Shown in pieces: positions 11,306-54,882 of a stretch of 64,000 nucleotides of DNA (the first letter of the stretch is position 1; each line of letters opens with the position of its first letter). The position numbers were made by a program, and so were the translations under genes. Below the pieces are notes generated by a model. That model did not search any database, was not told the origin of the DNA, and saw nothing but the letters and a program-made list of their open reading frames with translations. This DNA is from a virus: positions 32,001-96,000 of IMG/VR virus record IMGVR_UViG_3300036831_000148, one strand, 5' to 3'.

Positions 11306-11792
11306 TGGCTAACTCCGGGCTGACGTCGCCGCGGAACGAGGTGCGCCGCGCCGTCAGGGTGGTGACCTCGGTAACCCGGTAGGGGTCCTCGCCAGGGCCG
11401 TGGTTGGGGGCGTACGGGCGCACCCACTCGCGCGGCCCGGCGTCGCCGTCGGCCGCGAACGCGAACTCCTCCATCCGCTCGTGCAGGTCCACGTCGCCCA
11501 GCCGGTCGAACAGCCACCGCGTCCACGACGCCTCGTTGAAGGTGGCAGGCGGCACCGGGAAGTAGTGGTTGACCGCCATCGGCTGCGCCGGGTCGTAGGT
11601 GTTGGTGCCGGACCGCTGGACGACCAGCGTCAGCCCGCGTGACTCCCCGGCGTGGCGGCCGGGCTTGTCCCGCTGGCAGTCATCCTCCAGCCACACCTGC
11701 CAGCCCAGGTAATCCCGGTACCGCAGGCGGCTCACCAGGCCGGCCAGGGTCTCGGGGTACGGGGCGGTCTGCTGCATCTGGCGCTCGGTCAC
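11097..11792 (-). CDS. hypothetical protein (coding-like portion ends at TTA codon 11310-11312)
   Basis: GTG 11792 with CGATTG box 7 nt upstream; the 70 codons after TTA overlap the next gene out of frame. Confidence 0.6.
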   Translation of the reverse strand: MTERQMQQTAPYPETLAGLVSRLRYRDYLGWQVWLEDDCQRDKPGRHAGESRGLTLVVQRSGTNTYDPAQPMAVNHYFPVPPATFNEASWTRWLFDRLGDVDLHERMEEFAFAADGDAGPREWVRPYAPNHGPGEDPYRVTEVTTLTARRTSFRGDVSPELASGRGRPGCRRPPVSCRGSRLPRAGDAQQPAGQRRRPAAPPGHRRGAAGGPGRVAPAGRGTSPLGLVRRG

Positions 11793-12100
11793 TGCCCGGC
11801 AATCGGCCCCTGGCCGGGGGGCTGGCCGGGCATGCCCGGCGGCGGGGTCGGGGCCAGGTGCGCGTAGGCGAGCCCGGAGATGGTGTCCCCCGGGCGGCAC
11901 ACCAGGGCTTGGCCGAGCTGCGGGTGGACGGCAGCGGCGCCCTTGGGCGCGGTCTTCGGCAGCATCGCCGGGTCAGGCGCGGCCGGGCCGGGCTGCCCTC
12001 CGGGCGGCGACACGCCCGCCGCGAGCTCGACCGCGCGCCCGGCGGCGATCTCCTCCACCAGGTCGCGGGCGAGCGCCATCATGGCGTCGTGCGCGCTCAC
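11789..12100 (-). CDS. hypothetical Pro-rich protein
   Basis: 103 aa, GTGA coupling to portal gene. Confidence 0.55.
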   Translation of the reverse strand: MSAHDAMMALARDLVEEIAAGRAVELAAGVSPPGGQPGPAAPDPAMLPKTAPKGAAAVHPQLGQALVCRPGDTISGLAYAHLAPTPPPGMPGQPPGQGPIAGQ

Positions 12101-13701
12101 GACCCGCCCAGCCCGTTCCCCTTGCCGCCCTGGCCGATGGCGCTGCCGCCCGCGGCCGACGTGCCGGTAGCCGAGGTCTGCGAGCCGACCGGCACCTTGA
12201 TGTGCACCACCGGCTGCTGCGGCGAGCCGCCCTTGCCTGCCTGGACCGGGTTCTGCGCCTGCTCCTGAGCCTGCTGAGCCTGCTGCCGCTGCTGGGTGAG
12301 CATCTGCTTCTGCTGCTTCTCGCGGTCGGCCTTGATCTTGTCGTAGTCAATGTCAAAGCCGAAGTCGCCCGCCAGCCGCTGCTCCAGTTCCAGCATGAAC
12401 TCGGGCGTGACGTTAGCCTGCTGTCCTGCTGTGGCGAGCTTATCGAAAGTATCCTGGATAGCCGCCTTGGCTTCCTCGGTAAGCGGGCCCCACTTGAACA
12501 GCGGGTACTTCCCGGAACCGAAGTTCCAGTCAACGAACCGCGGGAAGATGTGGTCGTTGATGACCTGCGCCATTTCCTCCAGGACGCCTTCCAGCATGAG
12601 GAAATAGGTGACATCGTCCTGCTTCCCGAAGTCGACTAGTGTGCTATCCCCCTGGCCCCCGCCCTGCTCGTTATCGAACCACTGAGCGAGAACGCTCTTT
12701 GACATCTGCGAATTGTGGTGGTTGATCAATCCCAGGAAGTCAAAGCGCGCCGCGGCCTCGTTGAGGGTCTGCACCGTCCAGTCGGCGGTGGGCAGCGCGA
12801 TGTACTGCGCGAGGCCCAACTGGGCGAGCGCCCGGATGAAGTTGTCCTTGTCCGCCTTCGGCGCATTCGGCACCATCGTGCCCACGCGCAGGCCCACGGC
12901 CGCCCTTTGCGCAGCCAGGTGGGCAATGTAGTACAGCTTTTCCTTCTTGTCGTAGTGGTAAAAAGCAGACTCGAACATGGAGACGCCGTAGAACGGGCGT
13001 TCGGCTTCCTCGTGCGCGTAGTACAGCCCGGTTTCTTTCGGGATCTTGACATCGATCGTCCGGCCCTGGAAGAAGGTCCGCTGCCGGAAGCCGTTCCACT
13101 CGCCCTGGCCGTCAACCAGGAAAGTCAGCGTCTCCGAGGGGCGCCAGTCGATCTTCCGCAGCGTCCACTTGCCCTTGTGCGGCCCGGTCTTCGGCTGCCA
13201 GTAGACCATCTCCCAGGCGCTGAACCCGTTGAAGAGGGCGAGCAGCATCTGCTTCACGAAACGGTCAAAGGAGTGGGTCATCCCGCCCTGCGCCCGCGGC
13301 GCGAACAGCAGGTCCTTGCAGAACTGGGCTTCCTCCACCCCGCCCACCACGCCGTCGGCGGGCACCACGTCCGCGTTCTTCATCGCGCTCAGCAGCGGCT
13401 TGGTGAGCAGCCGGTACAGCGCGCGGGCCTGGCCGTCGCGGCGCCGCATGGTGACCAGTTGCCGCACGGTCACCGGGTCGTCGCGGAAGATCTCCCACGA
13501 ATCGCGGTAGGGCGTGGAGAACGGGAGGAAGTACGGGACGCCGACCGCGAAGTTCTGCGCCTCCTCGGGCGGCTGCACCAGTTGCTGGTCGTCAGCGAGC
13601 TGGTAGCCCTCCTGGCCGTAGCCCTGGGAGGTGACGCCCATGCCGCCCGGGGGCTGCACCGTAGACGTGTACGAGCCCTGGCCGCCGCCTGGAGTGGTCA
13701 T
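12097..13701 (-). CDS. portal protein (Mu gp29/DUF935-like)
   Basis: 534 aa, ALFNGFSAWEMVY, PFYGVSMFESAF, INHHNSQMSKSVL motifs; CGATTA box 7 nt upstream. Confidence 0.8.
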   Translation of the reverse strand: MTTPGGGQGSYTSTVQPPGGMGVTSQGYGQEGYQLADDQQLVQPPEEAQNFAVGVPYFLPFSTPYRDSWEIFRDDPVTVRQLVTMRRRDGQARALYRLLTKPLLSAMKNADVVPADGVVGGVEEAQFCKDLLFAPRAQGGMTHSFDRFVKQMLLALFNGFSAWEMVYWQPKTGPHKGKWTLRKIDWRPSETLTFLVDGQGEWNGFRQRTFFQGRTIDVKIPKETGLYYAHEEAERPFYGVSMFESAFYHYDKKEKLYYIAHLAAQRAAVGLRVGTMVPNAPKADKDNFIRALAQLGLAQYIALPTADWTVQTLNEAAARFDFLGLINHHNSQMSKSVLAQWFDNEQGGGQGDSTLVDFGKQDDVTYFLMLEGVLEEMAQVINDHIFPRFVDWNFGSGKYPLFKWGPLTEEAKAAIQDTFDKLATAGQQANVTPEFMLELEQRLAGDFGFDIDYDKIKADREKQQKQMLTQQRQQAQQAQEQAQNPVQAGKGGSPQQPVVHIKVPVGSQTSATGTSAAGGSAIGQGGKGNGLGGS

Positions 13702-13717
13702 GCAGGGCTAATCGGGG

Positions 13718-15591: not shown

Positions 15592-15691
15592 ATGCAGCTC
15601 CTAAACAGTTGCGCCCCGCTCTAGAAGCAGGGCAACGAACCACTATGCCGCAGCCGTCACGCTCTTGCCACGAGTTAACCGAACTGTGACG

Positions 15692-15725
15692 CAAAAAGCC
15701 CCGCCAGTCCCGGAGGACGGCGGGG
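15692..15725 (-). terminator. intrinsic terminator closing the tRNA array
   Basis: CCCCGCCGTCC...GGACTGGCGGGG followed by CTTTTTG on minus strand. Confidence 0.75.
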
Positions 15726-15845
15726 AACATTGGGGCAACTGTAGCATGATGTGGCGGGAGGCCGGTTCCGATCTCTACCCGCGAAGCCGAGTCTCGTACC
15801 CGGCCTCCCGCCTCCACACTCTCCGCAGCGCGAGCATCATGCAAG

Positions 15846-15917
15846 TGACCCGGGGAGGACTCGAACCTCCATCCTCCGCTTAGGAGACGGTAGCCCTATC
15901 CATTGGGCGACCGGGCC
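15846..15917 (-). tRNA. tRNA-Arg(CCT)
   Basis: cloverleaf, loop CTCCTAA, GGTTCGAGTCC. Confidence 0.85.
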
Positions 15918-15918
15918 G

Positions 15919-15995
15919 TGGAGGGAGAGCCGGGAGTCGAACCCGGATGTCACGTTTTGCAGACGTGCGCCTTGACGCGCCTCGGCCACACTCCC
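15919..15995 (-). tRNA. tRNA-Cys(GCA)
   Basis: loop CTGCAAA, U73, encoded CCA. Confidence 0.85.
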
Positions 15996-16085
15996 ATGGA
16001 CGGGGCTGCACCTGAGTGCGGCAGCCTGCCCCGCTTTACTGGCCCACCGCTACCCGCTGCCAGGTCGCGGCGGTGAACTCAGTCG

Positions 16086-16158
16086 TGCGCCCGAAGGGAC
16101 TCGAACCCCCGACACCCGGCTTCGGAAGCCGGCGCTCTGTCCACTGAGCTACGGGCAC
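16086..16158 (-). tRNA. tRNA-Arg(CCG)
   Basis: loop TTCCGAA. Confidence 0.9.
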
Positions 16159-16163
16159 CTGAG

Positions 16164-16246
16164 AGGCGCGTGCAGGATTCGAACCTGCGTAGGGCAGAGC
16201 CGGCTGCTTTACAGGCAGCTCCCGTTATCCGCTTGGGTAACGCGCC
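16164..16246 (-). tRNA. tRNA-Tyr(GTA)
   Basis: loop CTGTAAA, long variable arm. Confidence 0.85.
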
Positions 16247-16247
16247 G

Positions 16248-16322
16248 TGGGGTTGGTAACGAGAATCGAACTCGTATATCTGGAGCCACAGTCCAGCGCT
16301 CTGCCGTTGAGCTATACCGACC
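16248..16322 (-). tRNA. tRNA-His(GTG)
   Basis: loop CTGTGGC, G-1:C73, CCA. Confidence 0.85.
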
Positions 16323-16323
16323 G

Positions 16324-16397
16324 TGTCCAGTGAGGGATTCGAACCCCCGACGCCTGCCGTGTGGAGGCAGCGCTCTCCCGGGCTGAGCTAACCGGAC
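16324..16397 (-). tRNA. tRNA-Val(CAC)
   Basis: loop TCCACAC (C33). Confidence 0.85.
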
Positions 16398-16457
16398 ATG
16401 AAGGACGGCAGGGGGCTGAGCTCGAAGGCGGTGTCAGCCTGCTCACCCGTCGTCCAG

Positions 16458-16530
16458 TACACGCGAGAGGACTCGAACCTCCAACGCACGGCTCCGTAGG
16501 CCGCTGCTCTATCCGTTGAGCTACGCGTGC
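16458..16530 (-). tRNA. tRNA-Arg(ACG)
   Basis: loop CTACGGA. Confidence 0.9.
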
Positions 16531-16531
16531 T

Positions 16532-16606
16532 TGGTGGGCGTACCTGGTGCCGACCCAGGGACCTCGTCTGCGTCAGAGACGCGCTCTCCCGCTGAGCTAT
16601 ACGCCC
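16532..16606 (-). tRNA. tRNA-Val(GAC)
   Basis: loop CTGACGC, atypical T-loop GTCGGCA, CCA. Confidence 0.8.
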
Positions 16607-16614
16607 TCGTTCTG

Positions 16615-16642
16615 TTGACCAGCGTCAAGAGGCGGGTACCGT
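16615..16642 (+). promoter_or_regulatory. sigmaA-like promoter with TTGAC-N4-GTCAA palindrome
   Basis: TTGACC-16-TACCGT, GTG 7 nt downstream. Confidence 0.6.
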
Positions 16643-16649
16643 TAGTTAC

Positions 16650-16790
16650 GTGGCCTACCTCGTCGTCCTCGGCATCGGCATCTGGATTGGTGCCGTCGCC
16701 GGCCTCAAGTACGGTGCCCGCCGTGCCTTCACCCGGCTCGGCCGGGCCGAGCACGGCGAGCGCATGCGCCGCTCAGGGTTCGGCAGCTAG
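16650..16790 (+). CDS. small single-pass membrane peptide
   Basis: 46 aa MAYLVVLGIGIWIGAVAGLKYGARRAFTRLGRAEHGERMRRSGFGS, GC3-rich, leaderless. Confidence 0.65.
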   Translation: MAYLVVLGIGIWIGAVAGLKYGARRAFTRLGRAEHGERMRRSGFGS

Positions 16791-16863
16791 CGGTCCTGAC
16801 GGGATTTGAACCCGCGGCCCTCCGCTCGACAGGCGGACGCTCTACGCACTGAGCTACAAGACC
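16791..16863 (-). tRNA. tRNA-Asp(GTC)
   Basis: loop CTGTCGA, G73. Confidence 0.9.
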
Positions 16864-16875
16864 ATGTGTACTGCG

Positions 16876-16948
16876 CTCTCCGACCAGGACTCGAACCTGG
16901 AACCTGCTGATTAACGGTCAGTCGCGCTGCCGATTGCGCCACCGGAGA
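16876..16948 (-). tRNA. tRNA-Asn(GTT)
   Basis: loop CCGTTAA (C33), U1-A72, G73. Confidence 0.85.
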
Positions 16949-17146
16949 TCGTAAACGCCGGGGTACCGTGCCGTTCCCGGCTCCTGGTGATACTCCGCCC
17001 GCTGGACCCGGGCCAGGCTGCAGTTCCCGGCTGTATCCGGCAGGCCCAGGCCCGCCCGAGTAAGGCCCCCGGTTGTTTAGCCCTTATCCAGCAGGGCCAG
17101 CCACGTGTTCCCCGGGGCTTTCGCCGGCCGCCAGTGCCGGGCCTCG

Positions 17147-17222
17147 TAGCGGGGGCAGGATTTGAACCTGCGTATATGCCAGGCTATGAACCTGGTGAGC
17201 GACCAAACTGCTCGACCCCGCG
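17147..17222 (-). tRNA. tRNA-fMet-like (CAT)
   Basis: CGCGGGG start with C1 mismatch, loop TTCATAG. Confidence 0.8.
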
Positions 17223-17303
17223 CCGCGCGGGGCTTAACCGGACGTGACCCGGAAGCGCACCCGCTGCTTGCGCCACGGCACCAGGGTAAGTCCGGCGCCG
17301 TCG

Positions 17304-17377
17304 TAACCCCAACCGGATTCGAACCGGTGTCGCCCTGCTTGAAGGGCAGGCGTCCTGAGCCGCTAGACGATGGGGCC
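17304..17377 (-). tRNA. tRNA-Glu(TTC)
   Basis: loop CCTTCAA (C33). Confidence 0.85.
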
Positions 17378-17469
17378 GTGCGTCCTGCCGAGCGGATTTC
17401 AGCCAGCTCCCGGCGCGGACCTCAGAATCCTGCTTTGGCGTGGCCGTCTCCCGCGTAGCAGGCTCTGCG

Positions 17470-17543
17470 TGGTCCTGGCGGGATTCGAACCCGCGCTTTC
17501 CTGCTTGAGGGGCAGACGGCTTAGACCGCTAGCCGACAGGACC
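17470..17543 (-). tRNA. tRNA-Glu(CTC)
   Basis: loop CCCTCAA (C33). Confidence 0.85.
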
Positions 17544-17548
17544 ATGTG

Positions 17549-17621
17549 TGCGCCGGGGAGGTCCCGAACCCCCGCCGCGCCGCTTAGAAAACGGCCGTTC
17601 TATCCGCTGAACTACCGGCGC
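17549..17621 (-). tRNA. tRNA-Arg(TCT)
   Basis: loop TTTCTAA. Confidence 0.8.
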
Positions 17622-17625
17622 GCAG

Positions 17626-17698
17626 TGGGCCGCCCGGGACTTGAACCCGGAACACTCGGATTAAAGGTCCGCCGCTCTGCCATTTGCGCTAGCGGCCC
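17626..17698 (-). tRNA. tRNA-Lys(TTT)
   Basis: loop CCTTTAA (C33). Confidence 0.85.
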
Positions 17699-17699
17699 G

Positions 17700-17776
17700 T
17701 GGTAGCGGTAGCCGGGCTCGAACCGGCGGCCCTCCCATTATGAGTGGGACGCTCTGACCGACTGAGCTATACCGCC
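17700..17776 (-). tRNA. tRNA-Met or Ile2 (CAT)
   Basis: loop CTCATAA, CCA encoded. Confidence 0.85.
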
Positions 17777-17777
17777 G

Positions 17778-17852
17778 TAGGCTGCCGTGGAGTCGAACCA
17801 CGCTGCTAACTGCGTATCAGGCAGTCCCCGTCAACCGGCTGGGTCGCAGCCC
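17778..17852 (-). tRNA. tRNA-Ile(GAT)
   Basis: loop CTGATAC, atypical D-arm. Confidence 0.75.
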
Positions 17853-18033
17853 TCGCTTGAAACTCGACAGCAACAGTTACCGTGTGTACGCTGTCGGATG
17901 CGAGCAGTAAAAGACGCTGCTCGTAAAGGCAAGGCACCGTCACCCTCCAGGGGCGCGGCCCGTCAGGCCTTTGGCTGCATTACGGAGGCGGCGCTCGTCG
18001 GCCCACTACAGGCGCCGCCTCACGCCAGCCTCG

Positions 18034-18119
18034 CAGAGGGTTGAGGTGCCGACCCCCACGGCCCTCCCGGGCCGCCGCCTGTTTTCTAGACAGGATGTCC
18101 CGCCGGGGACGAACCCTCC
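18034..18119 (-). tRNA. tRNA-Ser(AGA), 8/4-type fold
   Basis: CCTGT-CTAGAAA-ACAGG, long V-arm, G73, acceptor GGAGGGTT/AACCCTCT. Confidence 0.7.
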
Positions 18120-18189
18120 AGGTATCCGCGGTCACCCTCGGGCAGGTGCTCGGCCAGCCCCGACACCGGCCAGGATCGCGGCATCCAGG

Positions 18190-18273
18190 CAGAGAGCGGA
18201 CGACTCGAACGCCACGGCTTGCACCGCGAGCCCGCTAGCAACGGGTCCTGGCCGCCTGGCCAGTTCACTCTCC
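18190..18273 (-). tRNA. tRNA-Ser(GCT), 8/4-type fold
   Basis: 8-bp acceptor GGAGAGTG/CGCTCTCT, 4-bp T stem, 6-bp D stem with 4-nt loop. Confidence 0.75.
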
Positions 18274-18345
18274 AGGTGCAGGACTTTTTGAAACCGGGCG
18301 CAACCCGGGGGCGTCCTGCGTGCCCTCGCCGCCTGCGCGGCCGAG

Positions 18346-18430
18346 TGGGCGGGGAGGGATTCGAACCCTCACGTCCCTCCCGGGACACACGGTCCTGAGC
18401 CGTGCGTGGCTGCCGTTACACCACTCGCCC
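18346..18430 (-). tRNA. tRNA-Leu(CAG)
   Basis: loop CTCAGGA, long V-arm. Confidence 0.9.
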
Positions 18431-18598
18431 ATGCTCCCCGGGCTGTTCTCCCTTGACTGGTCCGGGCCCGGGGGGCCGGCAGGGAGCCAGGTCGGCGCTC
18501 GCGCGCTGAGCTTCCCGGCCTCCTGCAGGAGGCCGGTCCGCCTGGAAGTGTCTGGGTGCTCCCCGGCTGCGCGTCCGCTAGCCGGCTTGCCCCCATAG

Positions 18599-18671
18599 AG
18601 CCGACGACGGGATTCGAACCCGCGGCCCTCACCTTGGCAAGGTGATGCGCTACCAACTGCGCCACGTCGAC
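18599..18671 (-). tRNA. tRNA-Gly(GCC)
   Basis: loop TTGCCAA, U73. Confidence 0.9.
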
Positions 18672-18710
18672 AAGCCGGACGGCCAGCCGCCGTCCGGGGT
18701 TCACCGGGCG

Positions 18711-18929
18711 TTAGCCGCCCTCCACAATCTCCCTGACCGAGGTCCGGGACCGGCCGGGCACCTGGATGCCGGACACCTCGCCGTCCGCCGCGGCGAACGT
18801 GAGGTGCACGGTCGTGCCCCTGAACTTCAGGGTGCACCCCACCGCCTCCGGGTGCACGCGGACCGTCAGGTCCACGTTGACGTCGCCCACTCCTACTGCG
18901 GCGGCGCCGCGGTTGCTCGTGCTGGCCAT
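18711..18929 (-). CDS. hypothetical protein
   Basis: 72 aa, TGATG coupling, SD GGAGG. Confidence 0.55.
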   Translation of the reverse strand: MASTSNRGAAAVGVGDVNVDLTVRVHPEAVGCTLKFRGTTVHLTFAAADGEVSGIQVPGRSRTSVREIVEGG

Positions 18930-19018
18930 CAGGTTGCCTCCTCCACCGTGACCGTGACCGACGCCTCAGCAGTGTTGCCTGCGGCGTCGGTCGCGGTGGC
19001 GGTAATGACCAGGTCCAC
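18929..19018 (-). CDS. 29-aa peptide duplicating part of the upstream Ig-like protein
   Basis: MDLVITATATDAAGNTAEASVTVTVEEAT; TAGTG and TGATG overlaps. Confidence 0.5.
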   Translation of the reverse strand: MDLVITATATDAAGNTAEASVTVTVEEAT

Positions 19019-19347
19019 TAGCTGGGCGGCGTCACGGTCGTGGTGAGGACCGCCGTGCCGGTGCCGTTGGACAGGGTGTTGGACTGCTCGGTGTAGGTGT
19101 CGCCGAAGGAGTCGCTCGCGGCGACGTCCATGGACTCGCTGGCCTGCTCCACCACGGTCACGTTCACCGAGGCCGCAGCCGTGTTGCCGTCGGCGTCGGT
19201 CGCGGTGGCGGAGATGACCAGGGAGACCGGGTTGGACGCGCTGTCGGCGTAGGCCGCCGTCAGGGTCAGCGTCTGGCCGGCCGTGTAGCTGTCAGCGTCA
19301 GTGGTCAGGGTCAGCGTCGGCGTGCCGGGGGCAGGGGGCGTGGTCAT
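19018..19347 (-). CDS. Ig-like beta-rich protein
   Basis: 109 aa T-rich, ISATATDADGNTAAASVNVTV; SD AGGAG and CGATTA box upstream. Confidence 0.7.
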   Translation of the reverse strand: MTTPPAPGTPTLTLTTDADSYTAGQTLTLTAAYADSASNPVSLVISATATDADGNTAAASVNVTVVEQASESMDVAASDSFGDTYTEQSNTLSNGTGTAVLTTTVTPPS

Positions 19348-19419
19348 GGGGTTCCTCTCCTGGAAAACCTGGGTCCCCACGCTAATCGCCACCAGCCCGC
19401 CGTGTCCGGCGAACGCGAG

Positions 19420-19493
19420 AGCCTCCACCCGGAGCCGAACCGGGGACCTCGCCCGTACCAAGGGCGTGCTCGTTCCAACTGAGCTATAGAGGC
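19420..19493 (-). tRNA. tRNA-Thr(GGT)
   Basis: loop TTGGTAC. Confidence 0.85.
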
Positions 19494-19535
19494 ATGCCAG
19501 GAACGCGCCTTCACGCGACAGGTGACTAATGAAGG

Positions 19536-19608
19536 CTCCGGGGGCCGGGCTCGAACCGGCGTGCCCTTGGTCCAAAGCCAAGGCGGGATGCCGTCAACCC
19601 ACCCCGGA
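19536..19608 (-). tRNA. tRNA-Gln(TTG)
   Basis: loop CTTTGGA, U1-A72, G73. Confidence 0.8.
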
Positions 19609-19613
19609 CCGAG

Positions 19614-19686
19614 CTGGGCGACAGGGACTTGAACCCTGACCCGCGGGACCATAACCCGCTGCTCTGCCGTTTTGAGCTAGCGCCCA
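19614..19686 (-). tRNA. tRNA with ATG (His) anticodon on a Gln-like body
   Basis: GCGGG-TTATGGT-CCCGC; TGGG acceptor with U1-A72, G73. Confidence 0.75.
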
Positions 19687-19689
19687 CTG

Positions 19690-19762
19690 AGCCGGTTACC
19701 GGACTCGAACCGGTCGCCCGCAGCTTACAAGGCTGCTGCTCTGCCAGGTGAGCTAAACCGGC
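19690..19762 (-). tRNA. tRNA-Thr(TGT)
   Basis: loop CTTGTAA. Confidence 0.9.
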
Positions 19763-19766
19763 AAGG

Positions 19767-19852
19767 TGTCCGGGGCGGGACTTGAACCCGCAGCGCCCGT
19801 AGCGGGCACCAGCACCTCAAGCTGGCGCGTCTGCCTATTCCGCCACCCGGAC
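19767..19852 (-). tRNA. tRNA-Leu(GAG)
   Basis: loop TTGAGGT, long V-arm. Confidence 0.9.
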
Positions 19853-19982
19853 AAAAGCGGGAGACCCGGTGACCGGACCCCGGCGCGCACCGGGGCGGCT
19901 GCCCTCGCTCCACCTGCGTGACCGCCTTGCGCGAGGCGGCTTCCGGTGGCGAGTCACCTGGGGATGCTGCACGTCTCCCTAG

Positions 19983-20050
19983 AGCCGCTGCCCGGTGCCG
20001 ACCCGGGTCGCCCGCCGTACGAAGGCGGGGCCGCAGCCGTGCGCGGCGGC
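19983..20050 (-). tRNA. compact tRNA-Thr(CGT)
   Basis: 68 nt, minimal D-arm, loop TTCGTAC, T-loop GTCGGCA. Confidence 0.65.
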
Positions 20051-20109
20051 AGGCCTCCGGGCGTTTGCCCCCGCGCAAGCGCTTACGGGGGTTATAGGCA
20101 CCGGAGGTT

Positions 20110-20187
20110 GCGGTTGCTCTGGGCCACTGAGCTACCGGACGCCCCTTCCAGGGAGACCGGGCGGGATTCGGACCCGCGACCTTCCGC
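20110..20187 (-). ncRNA. permuted anticodon-less tRNA-like module 1
   Basis: order: GCGG stem, V loop, T arm, looped acceptor, TAGCTC..GAGC D arm, CCGC. Confidence 0.65.
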
Positions 20188-20189
20188 TG

Positions 20190-20261
20190 CTGGAGTACCT
20201 GGACTCGAACCAAGACCGGCGGGTCCAGGGCCCGTCGCGCTGCCAATTACGCCATACTCCA
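20190..20261 (-). tRNA. tRNA-Gln(CTG)
   Basis: loop CCCTGGA (C33), U1-A72. Confidence 0.85.
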
Positions 20262-20360
20262 AGGCGGGAGGGCTCTTTGCTGACCCTCCGACTAACGGCC
20301 TTGCTCCCCGGCTCCCGGGGGACCGGACAGGGATTTGCAGGACGGCCCTGTCAGCCGTTG

Positions 20361-20436
20361 TAGGCGAGACGGGAATCGAACCCGCAAGAAGACGCGGGTT
20401 TTGAAGCCGCCGCATATGCCGTTCTGCTACTCGCCC
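20361..20436 (-). tRNA. tRNA-Leu(CAA) with short variable arm
   Basis: loop TTCAAAA, A73, 8-nt variable region. Confidence 0.7.
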
Positions 20437-20440
20437 GAAG

Positions 20441-20512
20441 TACCCCGCCAGGGACTCGAACCCTGACCTCACGGATTAAGAGTCCGCTGCTCTGCCATTG
20501 AGCTAACGAGGC
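20441..20512 (-). tRNA. tRNA-Lys(CTT)
   Basis: loop CTCTTAA. Confidence 0.9.
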
Positions 20513-20518
20513 TTGAAG

Positions 20519-20683
20519 CCCGGTGCCCAGCCCGCTCCCCCTGCCGTCCGGACTCGAACCGGGAGGTGCGCACCCTTGCTGGTAACCACTCGCCTGAGAC
20601 CGGGCCGCAGCCCCGCTGGCGGCCGCCAGCGGAGAGCAGGCCGGCCCCGTGCCAGCAGCAGAGGGGGCGGGCTGGGAACCGGG
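20519..20683 (-). ncRNA. long rod-like RNA carrying a tRNA T-arm
   Basis: ~25-bp terminal stem and CCGG-TTCGAGT-CCGG arm near 3' end. Confidence 0.5.
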
Positions 20684-20780
20684 AAGAACAACCCGGACCT
20701 GTTCCGGCCTCACGGCACTTATGCGAGGTGCCGTAGTCTTTTGGCCAGCCGGTTTCCGGGGGCGGTATGCATCCCGCCAG

Positions 20781-20853
20781 AGCCCCACCGGGGAATTGAA
20801 CCCCGCTAACCAGCTTGGAAGGCTGGCACATCGCCACTGAATGCTTGTAGGGC
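20781..20853 (-). tRNA. tRNA-Gly(TCC)
   Basis: loop CTTCCAA, U73. Confidence 0.85.
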
Positions 20854-21264
20854 AAGATCTACTTCCGGCCATAGCTCTCGAATGCGTGCGCGCCGGCGCG
20901 CACCAAGCCAGGGCCACACTTTCAAGGTCAGCCACTCACGGTGAGGCCGAGCCGCAACCTGCCAAATCCAGGCCGTCTTATAGCCACGAACGCTCTCCTC
21001 GCGGGTGATGCGGCCGACACCAGTCACGCTGAACAATCGCTCAACGATGTCCTCGTCCGTCATTCGAACAGCTACTACCCACCGCCCCTGTCGGTTCGGA
21101 CCACCCGTCCAGCAGCCCTCACCCTCCAAGATGCCTGCAATCCAGGCAACCTCGGGAGCAGTGACCGCCTCACGGGGGCTGCCGATGTCGGTGTAACGGC
21201 ACTTTCGGCACCGTTCCGCCGTATACCTCTTACGAGTGCCACAAGCACAAAGGTTGTACCCCAT
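20806..21264 (-). CDS. LAGLIDADG-family homing endonuclease with N-terminal Cys motif
   Basis: AWIAGILEGEGC...VRMTDEDIV.RL...TGVG; lower GC; overlaps tRNA-Gly. Confidence 0.75.
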   Translation of the reverse strand: MGYNLCACGTRKRYTAERCRKCRYTDIGSPREAVTAPEVAWIAGILEGEGCWTGGPNRQGRWVVAVRMTDEDIVERLFSVTGVGRITREESVRGYKTAWIWQVAARPHREWLTLKVWPWLGARRRARIRELWPEVDLALQAFSGDVPAFQAG

Positions 21265-21282
21265 ACCTGTGTTACGTGCAGG

Positions 21283-21355
21283 TGGTCACGGGGGCGCCCG
21301 AATCCCCGGCATGCTGCTTTTCAGGCAGCCGCTCTACCATCTGAGCTACGCGACC
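21283..21355 (-). tRNA. tRNA-Phe(GAA)
   Basis: loop CTGAAAA, imperfect T arm. Confidence 0.8.
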
Positions 21356-21475
21356 GTGGATGACAGCGCACCCAGCCCGCCCGGGGAACCCGGTACCCCG
21401 GCACGAACTCGGGACAGGCGTCCCTGCTTCGGCCGACCACCGGGTTATGCCGGCTCCTGCCTAGGCGCTGCCAAG

Positions 21476-21546
21476 TCGGGATACAGGGAGTCGAACCCCG
21501 GCTGACTGGCCCCAGACCAGGCGCGCTTCCGTTACGCAATATCCCG
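21476..21546 (-). tRNA. tRNA-Pro(TGG)
   Basis: C1-G72, A73, loop TCTGGGG (C33). Confidence 0.8.
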
Positions 21547-21548
21547 TC

Positions 21549-21615
21549 ACAGGCGTTCAGACCGCTGAACTACCAGGCCGAAGCCCTCGCCCGGAGTTGA
21601 ACCGGGATTTCCTGC
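21549..21615 (-). ncRNA. permuted anticodon-less tRNA-like module 2
   Basis: GCAGG-AAAT-CCCGG TTCAACT CCGGG-acceptor closed by cTTCGg-TA-GTTC AGCGGTCT GAAC-G-CCTGT. Confidence 0.75.
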
Positions 21616-21620
21616 TTGCG

Positions 21621-21696
21621 TCGGGCTGGGCGGATTCGAACCGCCGTCCTCCCGGCCCCCAGCCGGGCGCGCTGAGCCAAACTGCGCTACAGCCCG
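21621..21696 (-). tRNA. tRNA-Pro(GGG)
   Basis: loop CTGGGGG. Confidence 0.9.
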
Positions 21697-21818
21697 ATGT
21701 TTCGCGCGGGGTACCATCTCCCGCTCCCTGGGTCGCTAACCACTACCAGCCAGTGCCGTACGCTCACCAGCTGGCCCGGCCCGTCCGGCATGCGCCGTCA
21801 GGACCCCAGGCCCTTACG

Positions 21819-21893
21819 TCGGGGTGGGGAGATTCGAACTCCCGACCTCTACGTCCCGAACGTAGCGCGCTAGCCAAGCTGCGCCACACCCCG
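21819..21893 (-). tRNA. tRNA-Pro(CGG)
   Basis: loop TTCGGGA. Confidence 0.9.
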
Positions 21894-22005
21894 ATGGAGC
21901 CGCATGTTTTACCCAGTCCGGGCGGTTGGAGGCCCGCCGGCTCGTCAGGTTACCTTTTGCCCGGTGATCAACTCCGGAATAGGATGCCTTGCCTGGCATG
22001 CGACG

Positions 22006-22079
22006 TGGAGCTTGCGGGAATCGAACCCGCGGCCTCTGCATTGCGAGTGCAGCGCACTACCAAGCTGTGCTAAAGCCCC
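22006..22079 (-). tRNA. tRNA-Ala(CGC)
   Basis: G3:U70, loop CTCGCAA. Confidence 0.9.
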
Positions 22080-22083
22080 AGAT

Positions 22084-22219
22084 GCGGCGCTCTGCCATTG
22101 AGCTACCCGGATCAGTCAGCAGGCCGGCTGCCGGGGCGTTCCGCTACGCGTACTAGCCCGGCGCTCGGCGCCCGCTGCCTTCGCATCTCCGGGACGGGGG
22201 TCGAACCCGCGTCTCCCGC
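22084..22219 (-). ncRNA. permuted anticodon-less tRNA-like module 3 with extended acceptor hairpin
   Basis: T arm GCGGG TTCGACC CCCGT first, CCCGGA/TCCGGG stem enclosing ~75 nt, then TAGCTCAATGGCAGAGC. Confidence 0.7.
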
Positions 22220-22221
22220 CG

Positions 22222-22294
22222 TGGAGCCTAGGGGAGTCGAACCCCTGACCTTTTGCATGCCATGCAAACGCGCTACCTGCTGCGCCAAGGCCCC
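22222..22294 (-). tRNA. tRNA-Ala(GGC)
   Basis: G3:U70, loop ATGGCAT. Confidence 0.9.
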
Positions 22295-22483
22295 AGGGCG
22301 CGACAGCGGGACCGCGGTGTGAACACGGTCCCGCTGCCACGTCAGACCCCGCCGCCCGCCGAAGCGGGCAACGGGAGAACTCGCGGCGGGCTGGCAACCC
22401 GCCGCCTTACGATGCTCACGCTGTGGAGATGTCAAGGTTCGTTGACATTCACCCGCTCGGGCTCTCGCCGTCGCCGGTGGTCG

Positions 22484-22555
22484 CAAGGACGGGAGGGGTC
22501 GAACCTCCGCCACTGGTTTTGGAGACCAGCGCTCTGCCTGTTGAGCTACGTCCCT
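22484..22555 (-). tRNA. tRNA-Trp(CCA)
   Basis: loop CTCCAAA, G73; first tRNA of the array. Confidence 0.9.
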
Positions 22556-22558
22556 ATG

Positions 22559-22599
22559 AAACTGAAAAACCGCCCTGTCCGGAGCTTCCGGGGGCGGTT
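22559..22599 (-). terminator. attenuator terminator immediately before the first tRNA
   Basis: AACCGCCC-CCGGA AGC TCCGG-ACA-GGGCGGTT followed by TTTCAGTTT. Confidence 0.8.
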
Positions 22600-22620
22600 C
22601 CTGCTGGTCAGGACTAGTCC

Positions 22621-22731
22621 TTAGCCAGGAACCACCTCGCCGGGGATGAAGTTGTGCTCAGGCAGGAGCATGCTTGCGCACGGGCTGGCGTACCACCCTC
22701 GCGACTGCTGCTTTGACTGCCTGGCCATCAT
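22621..22731 (-). CDS. putative attenuator leader peptide
   Basis: MMARQSKQQSRGWYASPCASMLLPEHNFIPGEVVPG; SD AGGGAG; last codons overlap the antiterminator strand. Confidence 0.7.
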   Translation of the reverse strand: MMARQSKQQSRGWYASPCASMLLPEHNFIPGEVVPG

Positions 22732-22774
22732 GCTCCCTAACGTATCCGCTGCGGCCCGCCCGGGCCACTCTTTA

Positions 22775-22803
22775 AAGGTACTACCTTGCTTGACTGTTGT
22801 CAA
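22775..22803 (-). promoter_or_regulatory. sigmaA-type promoter for leader/tRNA array with operator palindrome
   Basis: TTGACA-17-TACCTT; CTTGAC-N4-GTCAAG over the -35 box. Confidence 0.75.
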
Positions 22804-22821
22804 GCTATTTACCGGGGAAGT

Positions 22822-22852
22822 TCGCGGGACCCGGCCCTACCGGGTCCCGCGA
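22822..22852. terminator. 13-bp perfect hairpin after gntR
   Basis: TCGCGGGACCCGG/CCGGGTCCCGCGA. Confidence 0.55.
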
Positions 22853-22872
22853 CCCCTCTTCCGACAGGCACC

Positions 22873-22901
22873 ACCGTACTACCCCTCTTGACTGCTGTCA
22901 A
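22873..22901 (-). promoter_or_regulatory. second sigmaA-type promoter with operator palindrome
   Basis: TTGACA-17-TACGGT; near direct repeat of 22775-22803. Confidence 0.7.
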
Positions 22902-23364: not shown

Positions 23365-23524
23365 GTCCGGAAGCGTACACCGGCGTTCACGGCTGTTCAC
23401 AGTCGTTCGGAACCGTGCTGCCTGGTGACAGCGGGCGGCAGGCCGTGCACACTGGAGGTGCCTTCCGGTTGCGCGGACGGGCGAGACTGATGGCGCTGGG
23501 GGAGCCGCATGCGGCGCGGCTCCC

Positions 23525-32942: not shown

Positions 32943-33187
32943 TCGGGCCTCCTGGCGATGGTCGCCCCCAGGAACACCGGGCCGGGACCGGCGCGGGCCT
33001 GAGCGTCAATTGGCAGGCCGGCGGCACACGCCGGCCCTGACTGGCTTATACGGCGGTAGCCGAACTCGCTGCCGCAGTTCGGGCACGCGAGGTAGACCGT
33101 CAGGCCGTCCTGCTCGGGCTCGGCGGGAGCGCCGCACTGCGGGCAGGGGGCGCCCTCGGCGAACTGCGGCTCAGGCAGCTGCGTCAA
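32939..33187 (-). CDS. zinc-ribbon protein
   Basis: CPQCG...CPNCG. Confidence 0.6.
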   Translation of the reverse strand: MTQLPEPQFAEGAPCPQCGAPAEPEQDGLTVYLACPNCGSEFGYRRISQSGPACAAGLPIDAQARAGPGPVFLGATIARRPE

Positions 33188-36100: not shown

Positions 36101-36218
36101 CGTCCCAGGGGCGGCGCGCCGAGTTGGGCTCGGTGCCCAGGTACTGCTGCGGCCCGTCAAAGCGGTGGAGGTTCCCCTCCAGCCACCCGGCGACCGATTC
36201 GGGGCTGCGTCCCGGCAA
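33171..36218 (-). CDS. B12-binding radical SAM protein (TIGR03960-like) fused to a TIGR03936/DUF2344-like domain
   Basis: QYLGTEPNS, FDIVGTSISY, GEAE, RGCDCWCVFC (CxxxCxxC), KVKLYF; C-terminal LRFVT..L..VFRRA. Confidence 0.75.
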   Translation of the reverse strand: MPGRSPESVAGWLEGNLHRFDGPQQYLGTEPNSARRPWDGASVRLLLAASWDYSQAAGNMAIPALYDAVHKAGAYTLADRWYLPATMRDLDLLVKGQVPVFGIESRHQLRDFDIVGTSISYTVLFMNFCRYLTMSGVPLRWRDRVPEDYPMILAGGQAWCAPEFMAPVVDCVWLGEAEDEPGNPGIAAVCARVRELRESGDWQSRRVWCYQRLALEFRFLYFPRFTAVDYRYEDRGLPEQTKTVAGYRPLLDGMPLERRSRRVASLADADLMTSAPVLFSDPGMGSGDVEAMRGCDCWCVFCRLSWVSKPPREEPVERTVERAAAWRRNMGATEISLVAPDPPMHRRKKELIGALLENVTDRVDASSMRIDDYLSDGDFSLLLQVSGTDSITLGLEGGAQRIRDLAGKGTSDDDVAAAVTRAIRAGVRKVKLYFISNWPGESRADVMRVVELGRRLADIRDSLGPAAAGVQIIFSWTPLLIEAQTPLQWFAVTPPDYMLSEAFRELMDNHRIWVKIGSKATAEKMAFFQVCQRASRDVGEAVADVIEHYGTASWGGFPKDMPARLDEALRRRGFRNGTDDIFGERFYGDLLGWEFIHTGVSRDLMWRAYRDMVEFLEGTSAETYDSQVPDGYHGQEWVPRCDQQCSGNACGVCTREDLELRRARVQAADRDLQARPVRPVDHSTVALKVRLQVDRPPGLRFVTNESLVYVFRRAAYQAQESFPGFPDLASRAVRLASGSTGYRERSAGRDYVEFGLTRGSEAVGPYLAKLGEILQPHLSWTGLYRVLLPSAKLPSRPSSLWELEVADDPGALGRRLAWWDAAAEVPVQIRADSFYTGATAVRGDAKEHVADFWVTRDGHRVLLKMILNGRLGPYQAYAALTGRASWIDAARYTALREEFFHGGAQPCEGCGRPVPASLVDVPWSDSLCPRCADQATGLVTAGLRAAGVLPGTSYPHLGREPVDSPGFKMTHRYGDTFGAAASQPAEEDEDWAGPGFPRHPSPDTLDQAQPVDAAA

Positions 36219-40349: not shown

Positions 40350-40861
40350 AGCCCTCCGCCCATGCCGTCGGCCGCGCCCCGGCGGAACCGCTCCTCGTCC
40401 TCGGGGTAGCGCGGGTTCACCACGAGGACCGGCACCTCGGCCAGCATCTCGATCTGCCCGGCGGCCTGCGGGTGGTCCTCGTAGTAGAGCAGCATCTCGA
40501 TCCCCCGCTCGCGCAGCTCGCAGATGAAGCGGGCCTTCAGCCGCCCGTTGGGGGCGTTGTCGCCGGGCGGGCGCTGCCGGATGTCGTCAAACGGGATCCG
40601 GTGCAGGTCCAGCCACTGGCGGGTGACCGCCGCAGACGACTCCTCGCTGCCCGAGAAGACGTACACCCGGTGGTGCGGGTAGTGCAGCCGGGCGGCGGCG
40701 ACCGCGCCGGGGAAGGGCGTGTCGCCCATCCGGGCGGCGCAGTACCTGCCCCAGTCCGACGACGGGTCAGACATCGGCGACAGGCCCCAGCGGTGCCGGG
40801 TGTCCGCCAGCGTCGAGTCAAGGTCAAAGCCGACCGCCGTGGTCAGCGCTCCGCGGTCCAT
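40346..40861 (-). CDS. HAD-family phosphatase (PNKP-phosphatase-like)
   Basis: FDLDSTLAD, SG, T..WL, K, YED. Confidence 0.75.
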   Translation of the reverse strand: MDRGALTTAVGFDLDSTLADTRHRWGLSPMSDPSSDWGRYCAARMGDTPFPGAVAAARLHYPHHRVYVFSGSEESSAAVTRQWLDLHRIPFDDIRQRPPGDNAPNGRLKARFICELRERGIEMLLYYEDHPQAAGQIEMLAEVPVLVVNPRYPEDEERFRRGAADGMGGGL

Positions 40862-41838
40862 AATCCTCCTAGCTGGGCCATCAGGTACTCCTCGGCGAGG
40901 GCGGTCACGGCTTCCCCGTGGCCTCCGGCCCGGATGGCGGCGAGCACGCTCTCTACGTTTAGTACGCCCAGCGCCGCGCCGTTCACCCCCGCCAGGAAGG
41001 CGTCCAGGCTGCGCCGGGCGGTGACCTCCCGGGCGTGCTCCCGCAGCCGGAACACCTCGGACGCCGGCTTCGCCTTCAGCGGGATGAACTCGAACGACGA
41101 GGGCGACCCCAGCTCCCACAGCGCGCAGCCGACCTGCCGCTCCAGGTTGTACTCGTCCAGCGAGCCGCGCGACAGCGCCCCGAAGTTGCAGAACCGCAGC
41201 GCCGAGTCGTCGGCGGCGTAGACCCCGTGCGGCTCGTGGATGTGCCCGTACAGCAGGCCGTGGCTGAACGGGCCGTCGTCTATGCCCTGCGCCCACCACC
41301 GCGCCGGGGTGCACTCGGCGCCCGGGTAGCGCGGCTCCCGGCCCGGCGGGTAGACGGGCGCGTGGGTGACCACCAGGGACTGCCCGAACACGCCCTCGCG
41401 GAAGTCCGCGAGGCAGGCGCGCACGCGCTCCTCGCTCCACTCCTGCTGCCAGGGCACCCCGTACAGCGGCAGGTTGTCCTCGGTCCAGCCCTCCAGGCGC
41501 CGCGCGCCCGCCAGGTAGAGCACCCCGAGCGGCTGCCCGGCCTCGATCGACGCGAGGCGGTCGTGGAGGATGTCGTGGTTGCCCGGCACGATGTACAACG
41601 GGCAGGGATAGCCGTGCACCACCCTGATCAGGTCCTGCATCACCCCGTGGTCGGTGCGCGACGGGGCCTTGTGGTGCAGCACGTCGCCCGCCCAGACCAC
41701 GGCGCTCACCTCGCGGGCGGATGCGACCTCGGTCGTCTGCCAGAGCAGGTCCAGCAGGTCAGGCCAGTAAGTCTCGGTGCACGACGACGGCGGCCGACGG
41801 CTGGCGTGGATGTCGCTGACTCCCAGGATCCTCGTCAC
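40843..41838 (-). CDS. SbcD/Mre11-like nuclease
   Basis: SDIH, GD, GNHD, TH, GHIH, NFGALSR. Confidence 0.8.
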   Translation of the reverse strand: MTRILGVSDIHASRRPPSSCTETYWPDLLDLLWQTTEVASAREVSAVVWAGDVLHHKAPSRTDHGVMQDLIRVVHGYPCPLYIVPGNHDILHDRLASIEAGQPLGVLYLAGARRLEGWTEDNLPLYGVPWQQEWSEERVRACLADFREGVFGQSLVVTHAPVYPPGREPRYPGAECTPARWWAQGIDDGPFSHGLLYGHIHEPHGVYAADDSALRFCNFGALSRGSLDEYNLERQVGCALWELGSPSSFEFIPLKAKPASEVFRLREHAREVTARRSLDAFLAGVNGAALGVLNVESVLAAIRAGGHGEAVTALAEEYLMAQLGGLWTAER

Positions 41839-45575: not shown

Positions 45576-45815
45576 CTAATCACAGAATGGTCCTGCACTT
45601 GCTACGCCTAACCCCGCCTCCGTGCGGAAGCTGTAGCCGGGCCACTGCGCCGTGAACGTGCACCCGCACTCCGGGCACAGTTGCAGCGCCTCTTCCGGGC
45701 CCTCGTCCTCCGGGTCCTCCGGCTCCAGCCAGGTGCCCTCGAACTCGGTGCCGCACCGCCAGCCCGGGCGACCTGGGCAGGCGATGACAGCGGCGAGGAT
45801 TTTGCGCTCGTGCAC
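45576..45815 (-). CDS. small zinc-ribbon protein
   Basis: CP......CG...CPECG; leaderless from sigmaA promoter. Confidence 0.55.
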   Translation of the reverse strand: MHERKILAAVIACPGRPGWRCGTEFEGTWLEPEDPEDEGPEEALQLCPECGCTFTAQWPGYSFRTEAGLGVASAGPFCD

Positions 45816-53718: not shown

Positions 53719-53722
53719 ACGG

Positions 53723-53911
53723 TCACTCCGGAAGGGCGATGTCCCGGTCGGCCAGGCGGCGGCGCACCTGGCCGAACTGCACAGGCGTGACTACGTCTAG
53801 CAGCGCGGCGACCACCTCCAGGAGGCCGTCCCGCTCGCGGGTCGCCTCGTCCAGTTCCATCTGGACGCTTCGCGCGTGCACCCGGATCGCCTCGCATTCC
53901 TCGCAGTCCAT
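53723..53911 (-). CDS. hypothetical protein
   Basis: 62 aa, CEEC, coiled coil. Confidence 0.55.
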   Translation of the reverse strand: MDCEECEAIRVHARSVQMELDEATRERDGLLEVVAALLDVVTPVQFGQVRRRLADRDIALPE

Positions 53912-53943
53912 GTCCCCAGGGGTTCCCGTATCCTGTTACGCCG

Positions 53944-54882
53944 CTACCACAGCGCCGCCAGGCTTTCGGCCACCCCGGCGGACGCCCCGGCCCGCCAGGC
54001 GGCGTCCGCGGCGGCGAGCAGGGCACGGCAGCGGCGCACCCGGTCGGGCCCGTAACGGGCCAGGTGCGGGATAACCCGGTTGGCGGCGAACCGCTCCGCC
54101 TTCAGCCAGGAGGCCGCCTCTCTGGGGGTCAGCCCCTGGCGCGTGCCGTCGGCGACCAGTTCGACCGCGGCCAGCCGGGACGACAGCAGGCCGATGACCA
54201 TCCCCAGGTCGCCGCGAGCAAGCGCGCGGGCGGCAGCGGCGGCGCCCGCGCGGTCCCCGGCCATCAGCCGGTCGGTGAAGTCACCGCCCGGATCAGGCGG
54301 GCAGACGACCGCCAGCGAGGCGGGCTGCGGGTCCAGGCCGGCGAGGCGGGCCTGCTCGCACGCCAGCCAGGCCCCGCTCAGCCCGCCGCCGCGCGTCAGC
54401 ACCTCGTAGGCGAGGTTCAGCGAGACCCCCGGCCACCAGGAGGCCACCAGGGCAGTCTGGTCCTCCAGGGACGACGGCGCGCAGCACCGGACAAGCTGCC
54501 CGGACCGCGACGACTGCAGCGCCGCCAGGTGCGGGGCAAGCTGCCCGTCGTCGCGCGCGAAGTCGTCGTCGCCGGAGACGAACGTCACGTAGGCGGTGTC
54601 CAGCTCTCCGGCCGTGGCGAGCAGCGTGACGTTCCCGGTGGCCTTCAGCCGCTCGGCCCCGTACACCGTCACCCGGCGCCCGCCCGGCGGCGGGACCGAC
54701 AGCAGCAGGTTCCACACGTCCCGCTCGGGCACCTCTCCGGCGAACAAGGCCGAGCACTGGTCCGGCGGCGCGCCCGCCCGGTGCTCGGCCACCACCTCGC
54801 GGGCCAGGACGTGCTCGGCACCGCAGACCCACGTGAGCGGCCGGACAGTCTTCTTGCGGGACCACTGCAGGTAAGTTGCCAA
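53944..54882 (-). CDS. clamp-loader delta-like subunit (HolA-like)
   Basis: 312 aa; WVCGAE.VL, RRVTVYGAERL, F.D.L..GD...A pattern; context. Confidence 0.6.
   Translation of the reverse strand: MATYLQWSRKKTVRPLTWVCGAEHVLAREVVAEHRAGAPPDQCSALFAGEVPERDVWNLLLSVPPPGGRRVTVYGAERLKATGNVTLLATAGELDTAYVTFVSGDDDFARDDGQLAPHLAALQSSRSGQLVRCCAPSSLEDQTALVASWWPGVSLNLAYEVLTRGGGLSGAWLACEQARLAGLDPQPASLAVVCPPDPGGDFTDRLMAGDRAGAAAAARALARGDLGMVIGLLSSRLAAVELVADGTRQGLTPREAASWLKAERFAANRVIPHLARYGPDRVRRCRALLAAADAAWRAGASAGVAESLAALW

Follow-up and report, generated by a model that had tools for sequence, protein, structure and literature searches.

In-frame TTA codons at gene ends of a GC-rich phage family align with stop codons of orthologues and may serve as translation terminators

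The leucine codon UUA is used as a stop in labyrinthulean (Thraustochytrium) mitochondria, together with UCA in pedinophyte-derived dinoflagellate plastids, and together with UUG in Marsupiomonadales mitochondria (PMC12574857). These organellar sense-to-stop changes have been tied to mutated release factors, RF2 (Ser204) or mtRF1a, and the plastid case was presented as the first such change outside mitochondria (PMC12574857). UUA termination has so far been described only in mitochondria and plastids, and our literature searches found no publication on TTA standing in place of stop codons in phages or bacteria. Three bacterial or phage systems come closest. In Streptomyces, the decoding of UUA depends on the bldA tRNA, and Antonov et al. 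(2023) described an open reading frame (ORF) upstream of adpA in which a UUA close to the 3' end precedes the main start by 5 nt; for this UUA, a 1-nt push onto UAG or UAA was proposed (PMC10732093). UUA-triggered bypassing has been described in terminase genes of phage phiHau3 and of prophages (Smith et al. 2013, according to its citation in PMC10732093), and Antonov et al. present evidence for it in the phiHau3 terminase (PMC10732093). Lastly, Micrococcus luteus has two codons, AGA and AUA, that are unassigned under GC pressure, a case that belongs to the codon-capture theory (PMC4695839). Here, we compare these systems with the TTA codons of a 64,000-nt window, namely bases 32001-96000 of the 146,268-bp single-contig virus record IMGVR_UViG_3300036831_000148 (hereafter G000), the genome of an uncultured soil phage with a GC content of 71% and nearly all its genes on the minus strand. 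The sister phages used for comparison were G001, G002 and G011 (they and G000 are about 65-75% identical), ten other high-GC phage records were additionally fetched, and genes were called from their coding cores in the family-wide tests.

We found that TTA, the rarest codon overall, is yet the commonest sense codon at positions aligned with stop codons. The following lines of evidence show that selection treats a junction TTA like a stop codon. First, as the first-pass annotation of the window had proposed to check, orthologues do carry a stop at the aligned codon: in at least seven independent families of genes from G000, G001, G002 and G011, a TTA occupies exactly the codon that is TGA or TAG in an orthologue, as in the gene for a 2405-2899-aa protein, which ends in TTATG in G002 and G011 versus TGATG in G000 and G001. 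Second, where pairwise alignments extend to the residue directly preceding a stop, the codons found opposite a query's stop were TGA (205), TAG (127), TAA (32) and TTA (18), with no other sense codon occurring more than seven times. Third, the concentration of TTA at gene ends exceeds chance, as 66% of the in-frame TTA codons lie in the end zone versus a 5% baseline. The corresponding share is 33-38% for the Shine-Dalgarno (SD)-like codons AGA and CGA, and only 6-14% for the other AT-rich rare codons (ATA, CTA, AAA, TTT, ATT, TAT and AAT); because these are not concentrated at ends, the earlier suggestion of a chance effect of AT-rich boundary signals fails. Fourth, the formal run-ons past a junction TTA (n=18, median 13 codons, mean 32.6 codons) do not differ in length from those that result when genuine junction stops are read through in silico (n=49, median 22 codons; p=0.91), whereas a stop comes almost immediately when another sense codon stands at the junction (n=264, median 0; p=7e-13). 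Fifth, six of the nine formal gene overlaps of at least 100 nt in the four genomes contain a junction TTA (590, 209, 208, 154, 154 and 145 nt).

The abundance and placement of these codons point the same way. Each genome has 4-7 ends of the TTA type and 10-25 TAA ends, and 1-4 TTATG versus 0-2 TAATG junctions, which is about the frequency expected of an all-AT stop under GC pressure; about 3-5% of the genes end in TTA. Most junction TTA codons of the family fall within a few nt of the start that follows, often in the form TTATG. No TTA was found at a conserved interior leucine in about 150k codons, leaving aside the ambiguous cases of a 302-aa gene and of two G002 sites taken up below. The signature also occurs in G004, G005, G006 and G009, and is missing in G008, G012 and the cultured Microbacterium phage Magritte, which suggests a host- or lineage-specific trait. 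In G008 (L094-L102), a 162-kb genome with 70% GC and 33 tRNAs bearing the same three leucine anticodons as G000, there are 0 in-frame TTA codons in about 48,000 codons, and Magritte has a single one (at codon 4) with none at gene ends, so that it offers no experimental entry point.

We propose that the gene-end UUA acts as a translation terminator, that is, a fourth stop signal, possibly leaky or conditional, which would be evolutionarily interchangeable with UGA, UAG and UAA. We give this proposal a probability of roughly 0.55. The first-pass annotation had considered UUA as either a terminator or a frameshift switch; the terminator half agrees with the position of TTA at the functional ends of proteins, in register with stops, and the switch half is unlikely. 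Mechanistically, the actinobacterial host would not supply Leu-tRNA(UAA) to the ribosomes that reach UUA during infection, and the finished chain might be released by a host release factor accepting UUA or, alternatively, through near-cognate release, rescue or drop-off at the stalled ribosome. At a TTATG junction, release would then let the ribosome reinitiate, by coupling, on the AUG that overlaps the TTA, in the manner of TGATG or TAATG. We infer that ribosomes end translation at the junction TTA. A stronger version is doubtful but worth stating, in which the uncultured high-GC host has lost tRNA-Leu(UAA), one of its release factors reads UUA, and host and phages share a four-stop code reached by codon capture under GC pressure.

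In the window itself, the first-pass annotation had listed five in-frame TTA codons. Direct reading of the coordinates bore out all five (they read TAA on the plus strand and thus TTA on the other, and each falls in the frame of a minus-strand ORF) and added one that had been overlooked, a TTATG at 314-312, which brings the total to six (Table 1). All six stand at the end of coding potential, and none was found within a coding core anywhere in the window. The formal run-ons of 70, 66 and 192 codons previously given for sites 1, 2 and 5 are correct, and those of sites 3 and 4 are 5 and 10 codons. Sites 2 and 4 sit 36 and 81 nt upstream of the next start.

Table 1. In-frame TTA sites of the window and the features discussed with them (window coordinates).
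Feature	Coordinates	Strand	Description
Site 1	11310..11312	-	TTA in ORF 11097..11900, right after the last conserved residue of gene A (...GDVSPE)
Gene A	11313..11792	-	Conserved phage protein of ~155-160 aa, no assigned function; start GTG 11792 or ATG 11777
Formal run-on of gene A, 70 codons	11097..11309	-	Overlies the MuF-like gene 10301..11305; no coding signal in the run-on frame
Site 2	33372..33374	-	GGC GTA TTA in ORF 33171..36218, ending the conserved part of the 949-codon radical-SAM protein
Separate small gene	33171..33335	-	Start GTG 33335 or ATG 33314; by chance in frame with the radical-SAM ORF
Site 3	40861..40863	-	GGA GGA TTA TGG in ORF 40843..41838; TTATG, with ATG 40861-40859 opening the next gene; formal TGA 5 codons on
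Site 4	45609..45611	-	TTA-G after ...FRTEAG of the 68-codon gene 45815..45612, in ORF 45576..45815
Site 5	54872..54874	-	TTA from the ACT TAC (T-Y) codons of the next gene; closes the 81-codon ORF 55117..54875
Next gene after site 5 ('holA-like')	53944..54882	-	Own start TTG 54882; no Pfam match
Site 6	312..314	-	TTATG; TTA closes the 39-codon gene 431..315; ATG 312-310 starts the next gene 312..172
tRNA array, 37 tRNA genes	15845..22555	-	Leu anticodons CAG, GAG and CAA only; no UAA, no UAG

At sites 1 and 5, coding potential leaves the frame of the ORF exactly at the TTA, as judged by codon-usage log-likelihood and by a scan of the GC content at third codon positions (GC3). Site 1 reads GAG TTA GCC A GTG, with a TAG at +1 and the GTG start of the MuF-like gene at 11305. 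GC3 is 0.91 before the TTA and 0.50 after it, versus 0.87 in the MuF frame, and the codon-usage log-likelihood ratio is -1.04 for the run-on versus +0.30 in the MuF frame. Gene A has 597 database homologues; members of its family end in ...RRTSFRGxLNPE, and the window protein ends in ...GDVSPE followed by the TTA and then by out-of-frame sequence. In the DNA of about 40 relatives with the end motif, most carry TAG or TGA at that position or a few codons from it, for example CCG GAG TAG CCG GTG. Within the family, the gene ends as CCG GAG T-TAG CCA GTG in G000, with TAG in G002, and with TTA at the same codon in G011 (CCC GAG TTA CAT GGC TGA). The upstream ORFs of both site 1 and site 5 are missing from G001.

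At site 5, the formal ORF (54293..55288) runs on to 54293 with a GC3 of 0.55 after the TTA, versus 0.96 in the frame of the next gene. The identical TTA occurs in L013, with a run-on of 17 codons, and homologues of the 81-codon protein stop 2-3 codons past the aligned position. It had been noted that a +1 slip at this site (54874) would enter the frame of the next gene; this is so, but a frameshift switch into that gene is unlikely, since its own start is conserved in G001 and the 81-codon ORF is a lineage-specific insertion. Compared with G001, in which 5 nt separate the flanking genes, the insertion adds 240 nt (54883-55122, minus strand), and the 81-codon ORF has only four database homologues, all metagenomic. 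The N-terminus of the next gene, (M)ATYLQWSR, is kept in G001, which starts it with ATG (ATG GCT ACG TAT, MATYLQW). A fusion of the 81-codon ORF to the next gene through a one-T deletion was also considered and rejected, as it would disrupt the conserved A-T-Y codons.

In the radical-SAM gene, the same GGC GTA TTA of site 2 is found in G001, G002 and G011, the TTA being followed by A in G011, and the run-ons past it are 66 (G000), 19 (G001), 59 (G002) and 525 (G011) codons. The frame of the following gene relative to the radical-SAM ORF varies among the genomes. In G000, the 66 codons after the TTA are coding and in the same frame; the small gene concerned lies in a different frame in G001 and is therefore a separate gene, as had been suggested for ORF 33335-33171. 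Immediately after the TTA (33336-33380, minus strand, and the orthologous sites of G001, G002 and G011), the DNA is conserved, reading GTATTAC.GGTAC ... CACACCTG.GGAG, with indels that shift the frame. To judge from this pattern, the stretch behaves like a conserved non-coding signal (for example a promoter or ribosome-binding-site region) rather than like coding sequence.

At site 6, the formal run-on extends over 50 codons to the TGA at 161-159, across the entire next gene; GC3 is 0.95/0.85 before the TTA and lower after it, and opposite this TTA the G002 orthologue carries a stop. At site 4, GC3 is 0.20 over the ten codons past the TTA, and the aligned codon is TAG in G002 and TGA in G011, with G001 having TAG one codon earlier. 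Site 3 is uninformative alone, because its orthologues stop 2-4 codons past the aligned position. Alignments spanning a TTA were flooded by low-complexity tail matches and were relied on for single clear cases only. An overlap 53 nt long and devoid of TTA (63663-63715, minus strand) is kept in all four family genomes (41-56 nt); either the two genes truly overlap over this length or some different kind of recoding takes place there.

The sequence itself appears reliable at sites 1, 2 and 5. A Logan contig (3470 nt, about 20x depth) from one public soil-metagenome run, probably the source sample, is identical over 9861-13300, including the GAG TTA GCC of site 1. This independent assembly, which consists of contigs rather than reads and covers site 1 only, disposes of the earlier concern about a sequencing error there; likely coming from the source sample, it excludes an assembler error and not a population variant. 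The TTA of site 2 is present in four genomes and that of site 5 is shared with L013, and this conservation in other assemblies argues against sequencing errors at these two sites. Sites 3, 4 and 6 rest on one assembly.

Consistent with the array in Table 1, no tRNA-Leu(UAA) was found in the window or in the remainder of the G000 genome, as the first-pass annotation had reported for the array, and this tRNA is absent from the arrays throughout the phage family, which carry 33-37 tRNAs. Within the array, a tRNA predicted by ARAGORN at 19613-19686 (minus strand), adjoining tRNA-Gln(TTG), has an unusual anticodon, ATG (His, A34), and a normal tRNA-His(GTG) is also present. The array further contains a sub-threshold match to YrlA (Y RNA-like; 20092-20201, minus strand; 32 bits versus a gathering score of 69), and a Ro-like RNA-binding protein is encoded by the related phage Magritte. 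Magritte is the closest cultured relative (its portal protein is 50% identical). The prophage-like relatives of gene A and a DivIVA-like gene point to Actinomycetota as the host phylum. The profile search with gene A retrieved only four distant prophage-like loci (Mycobacterium, Streptosporangiaceae and Acidimicrobiia), no relative of the DivIVA-like protein was found in the genome-contig search for the host, a megablast of 12 kb of G000 against GenBank phages gave no match, and a tblastn with the radical-SAM protein gave distant gut-phage fragments only.

Several observations weigh against a terminating UUA. No RF-1 domain protein was found in the G000 genome and no tmRNA was seen in the tRNA region (15000-24000). 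A stalled ribosome does not free its chain unaided, and tmRNA rescue tags the protein for degradation. Sites 3 and 4, taken alone, are compatible with short real extensions, the GC bias alone roughly predicts the absence of interior TTA, and G002 has two apparently interior TTA codons, at 65878 and 146091. The most pointed objection comes from outside the window, where a conserved gene for a 302-aa protein (genome 11989..11081; G002 117078) has a single in-frame start, with TTA as codon 3 (G000) or 4 (G002). There, UUA seems to have to be passable unless some unexplained recoding takes place, which speaks against a hard stop. The in-frame ATG yields MALLLSN (genome 11950-12010, minus strand; G002 117040-117100), and an SD-proximal ATG/GTG opens another frame (frame A, MTQWRYY) that matches the N-terminus of G001 and G011 (QWRFY-SN). 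Frame A meets TAC TTA GC (TTA GCA), and G000 and G002 carry two extra bases exactly there; a pattern search for this N-terminal site matched G002 only. The gene may thus contain either a leaky UUA stop or a UUA-dependent recoding site of the phiHau3 kind, and under the shared four-stop code its early TTA would likewise be a site of leaky termination or of recoding. G002 also has an AT-richer, apparently non-coding stretch (97900-98200, L072) with six TTA codons within a 403-codon formal ORF, which is possibly a non-coding RNA or a regulatory region.

The 302-aa gene, with its apparent need for a decoded UUA, also favors an alternative, namely that TTA is an ordinary rare leucine codon and that the junctions are stop-loss mutations (TGA or TAA to TTA, or TAG to T-TAG through duplication of a T) with translated and tolerated tails. 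TGA and TAA are indeed one substitution away from TTA, and sites 1 and 4 resemble the duplication of a T before TAG. However, random events should give CGA, GGA, TGG, CAG and the like far more often than TTA, and those codons, at stop-aligned positions, meet a new stop within 1-7 codons, whereas TTA tails reach 192 or 525 codons. Furthermore, TTA sites persist across genomes that are only about 65-75% identical, and it is unlikely that several large proteins would bear Arg/Pro/Ala-rich tails of 50-190 residues without any effect. We therefore regard stop loss as improbable, while keeping it in view.

Less probable still is a programmed pause of the kind proposed for bldA and the adpA upstream ORF, in which a ribosome waiting at UUA for a scarce, perhaps growth-phase-regulated tRNA-Leu(UAA) occupies the start region of the next gene and gates its initiation, with read-through once the tRNA is present. 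The nearness of most junction TTA codons to the next start agrees with it, as does a UUA that can be passed at the third codon of the 302-aa gene; in Streptomyces, ribosomes pause at the UUA that lies ahead of the main start in the adpA upstream ORF (PMC10732093). Pausing leaves unexplained both the unconstrained tails and the replacement of a stop by TTA at the same codon, and the co-occurring high-GC phages G008 and G012, as well as Magritte, show no such TTA.

We consider it very unlikely that a hungry UUA makes the ribosome slip by +1 onto an overlapping UAG or UAA (U-UAG), at which standard termination would follow. As the first-pass annotation had remarked, the TTA-G context exists at two sites (1 and 4); it is also found in frame A of the 302-aa gene (TAC TTA GCA) and at some G002 sites, the TTA-A of the G011 radical-SAM site would serve equally, and the 1-nt push of Antonov et al. 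was proposed for just UUA-G/A (PMC10732093). This slip, which had been put forward for UAG, nonetheless fits only two of the six window sites; across the family, most junctions are TTA-T (commonly TTA-TG) or TTA-C, where +1 gives UAU or UAC, and the P-site codons GAG, AAC and GTA are unable to re-pair at +1. Finally, assembly errors masking true stops, or AT-rich start and promoter signals falling in frame, form the least credible explanation and are largely refuted: one extra T would account for sites 1 and 4 and a CCGATTA-like upstream motif includes TTA, but the Logan contig reproduces site 1, the site 2 TTA recurs in four genomes, the TT of site 5 is needed by the conserved T-Y codons of the next gene and is common to L013, and other AT-rich codons are not enriched at ends.

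If UUA terminates translation in these phages, standard gene callers mis-annotate them, producing false C-terminal tails of up to 190 residues, spurious long overlaps and artificial gene fusions such as the radical-SAM ORF of 1015-1449 aa. A sense-to-stop code change would then reach from organelles into phages or bacteria, and the codon-capture theory would gain a living intermediate, since ends of the TTA type are roughly as common as TAA ends at a GC content of 71%. Simple reporters built on the TTATG junctions could show whether a hungry or reassigned codon can sustain translational coupling. As the signature is patchy among co-occurring soil phages it could mark host range; for the signature itself, G008 would be a useful negative control.

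Compared with the known systems, the phage family resembles each in part. Like the adpA upstream ORF, ORFs of the window carry a rare UUA at their 3' ends, within a few nt of the following start codon and against a GC-rich actinobacterial background. The adpA case is a single host regulatory ORF with a normal stop two codons on, whereas the phages show many unrelated genes, no nearby stop and an exact exchange of TTA for a stop between orthologues. The base 3' of UUA also differs, being mostly U in the phage family and G or A in the adpA-type push: G or A follows at two of the six window sites, and TTA-T and TTA-C dominate in the family. As to phiHau3, the likeness is that a UUA marks a change of reading frame within a gene of an actinophage, and it is the N-terminus of the 302-aa gene, with its TAC TTA GC and two extra nt, that resembles it. 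In phiHau3 the two halves belong to one conserved protein, joined across 7-10 nt, whereas the six window sites separate genes with their own starts; no conserved protein spanning a UUA was found at the window sites, and the 302-aa gene is a possible exception.

As in M. luteus, the setting is actinobacterial and very rich in GC, and a codon ending in A has vanished and may have no tRNA; the host of Magritte, the closest relative in culture, belongs to the Micrococcales. The unassigned codons of M. luteus stall ribosomes without release and, to our knowledge, have not been reported as replacements of stop codons. The organellar UUA stops, a model for a table-23-like code, differ from the case of these phages of a bacterium in that a large share of the genes there end in the new stop and the release factor has been identified, as compared with about 3-5% of the phage genes, and in that one phage gene seems to need UUA to be read through. 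What the two have in common is the comparative criterion by which sense-to-stop changes are recognized, namely codons lying at homologue-defined ends (PMC12574857), and in at least seven gene families of these phages a TTA that closes a coding sequence is aligned with a stop of its orthologues.

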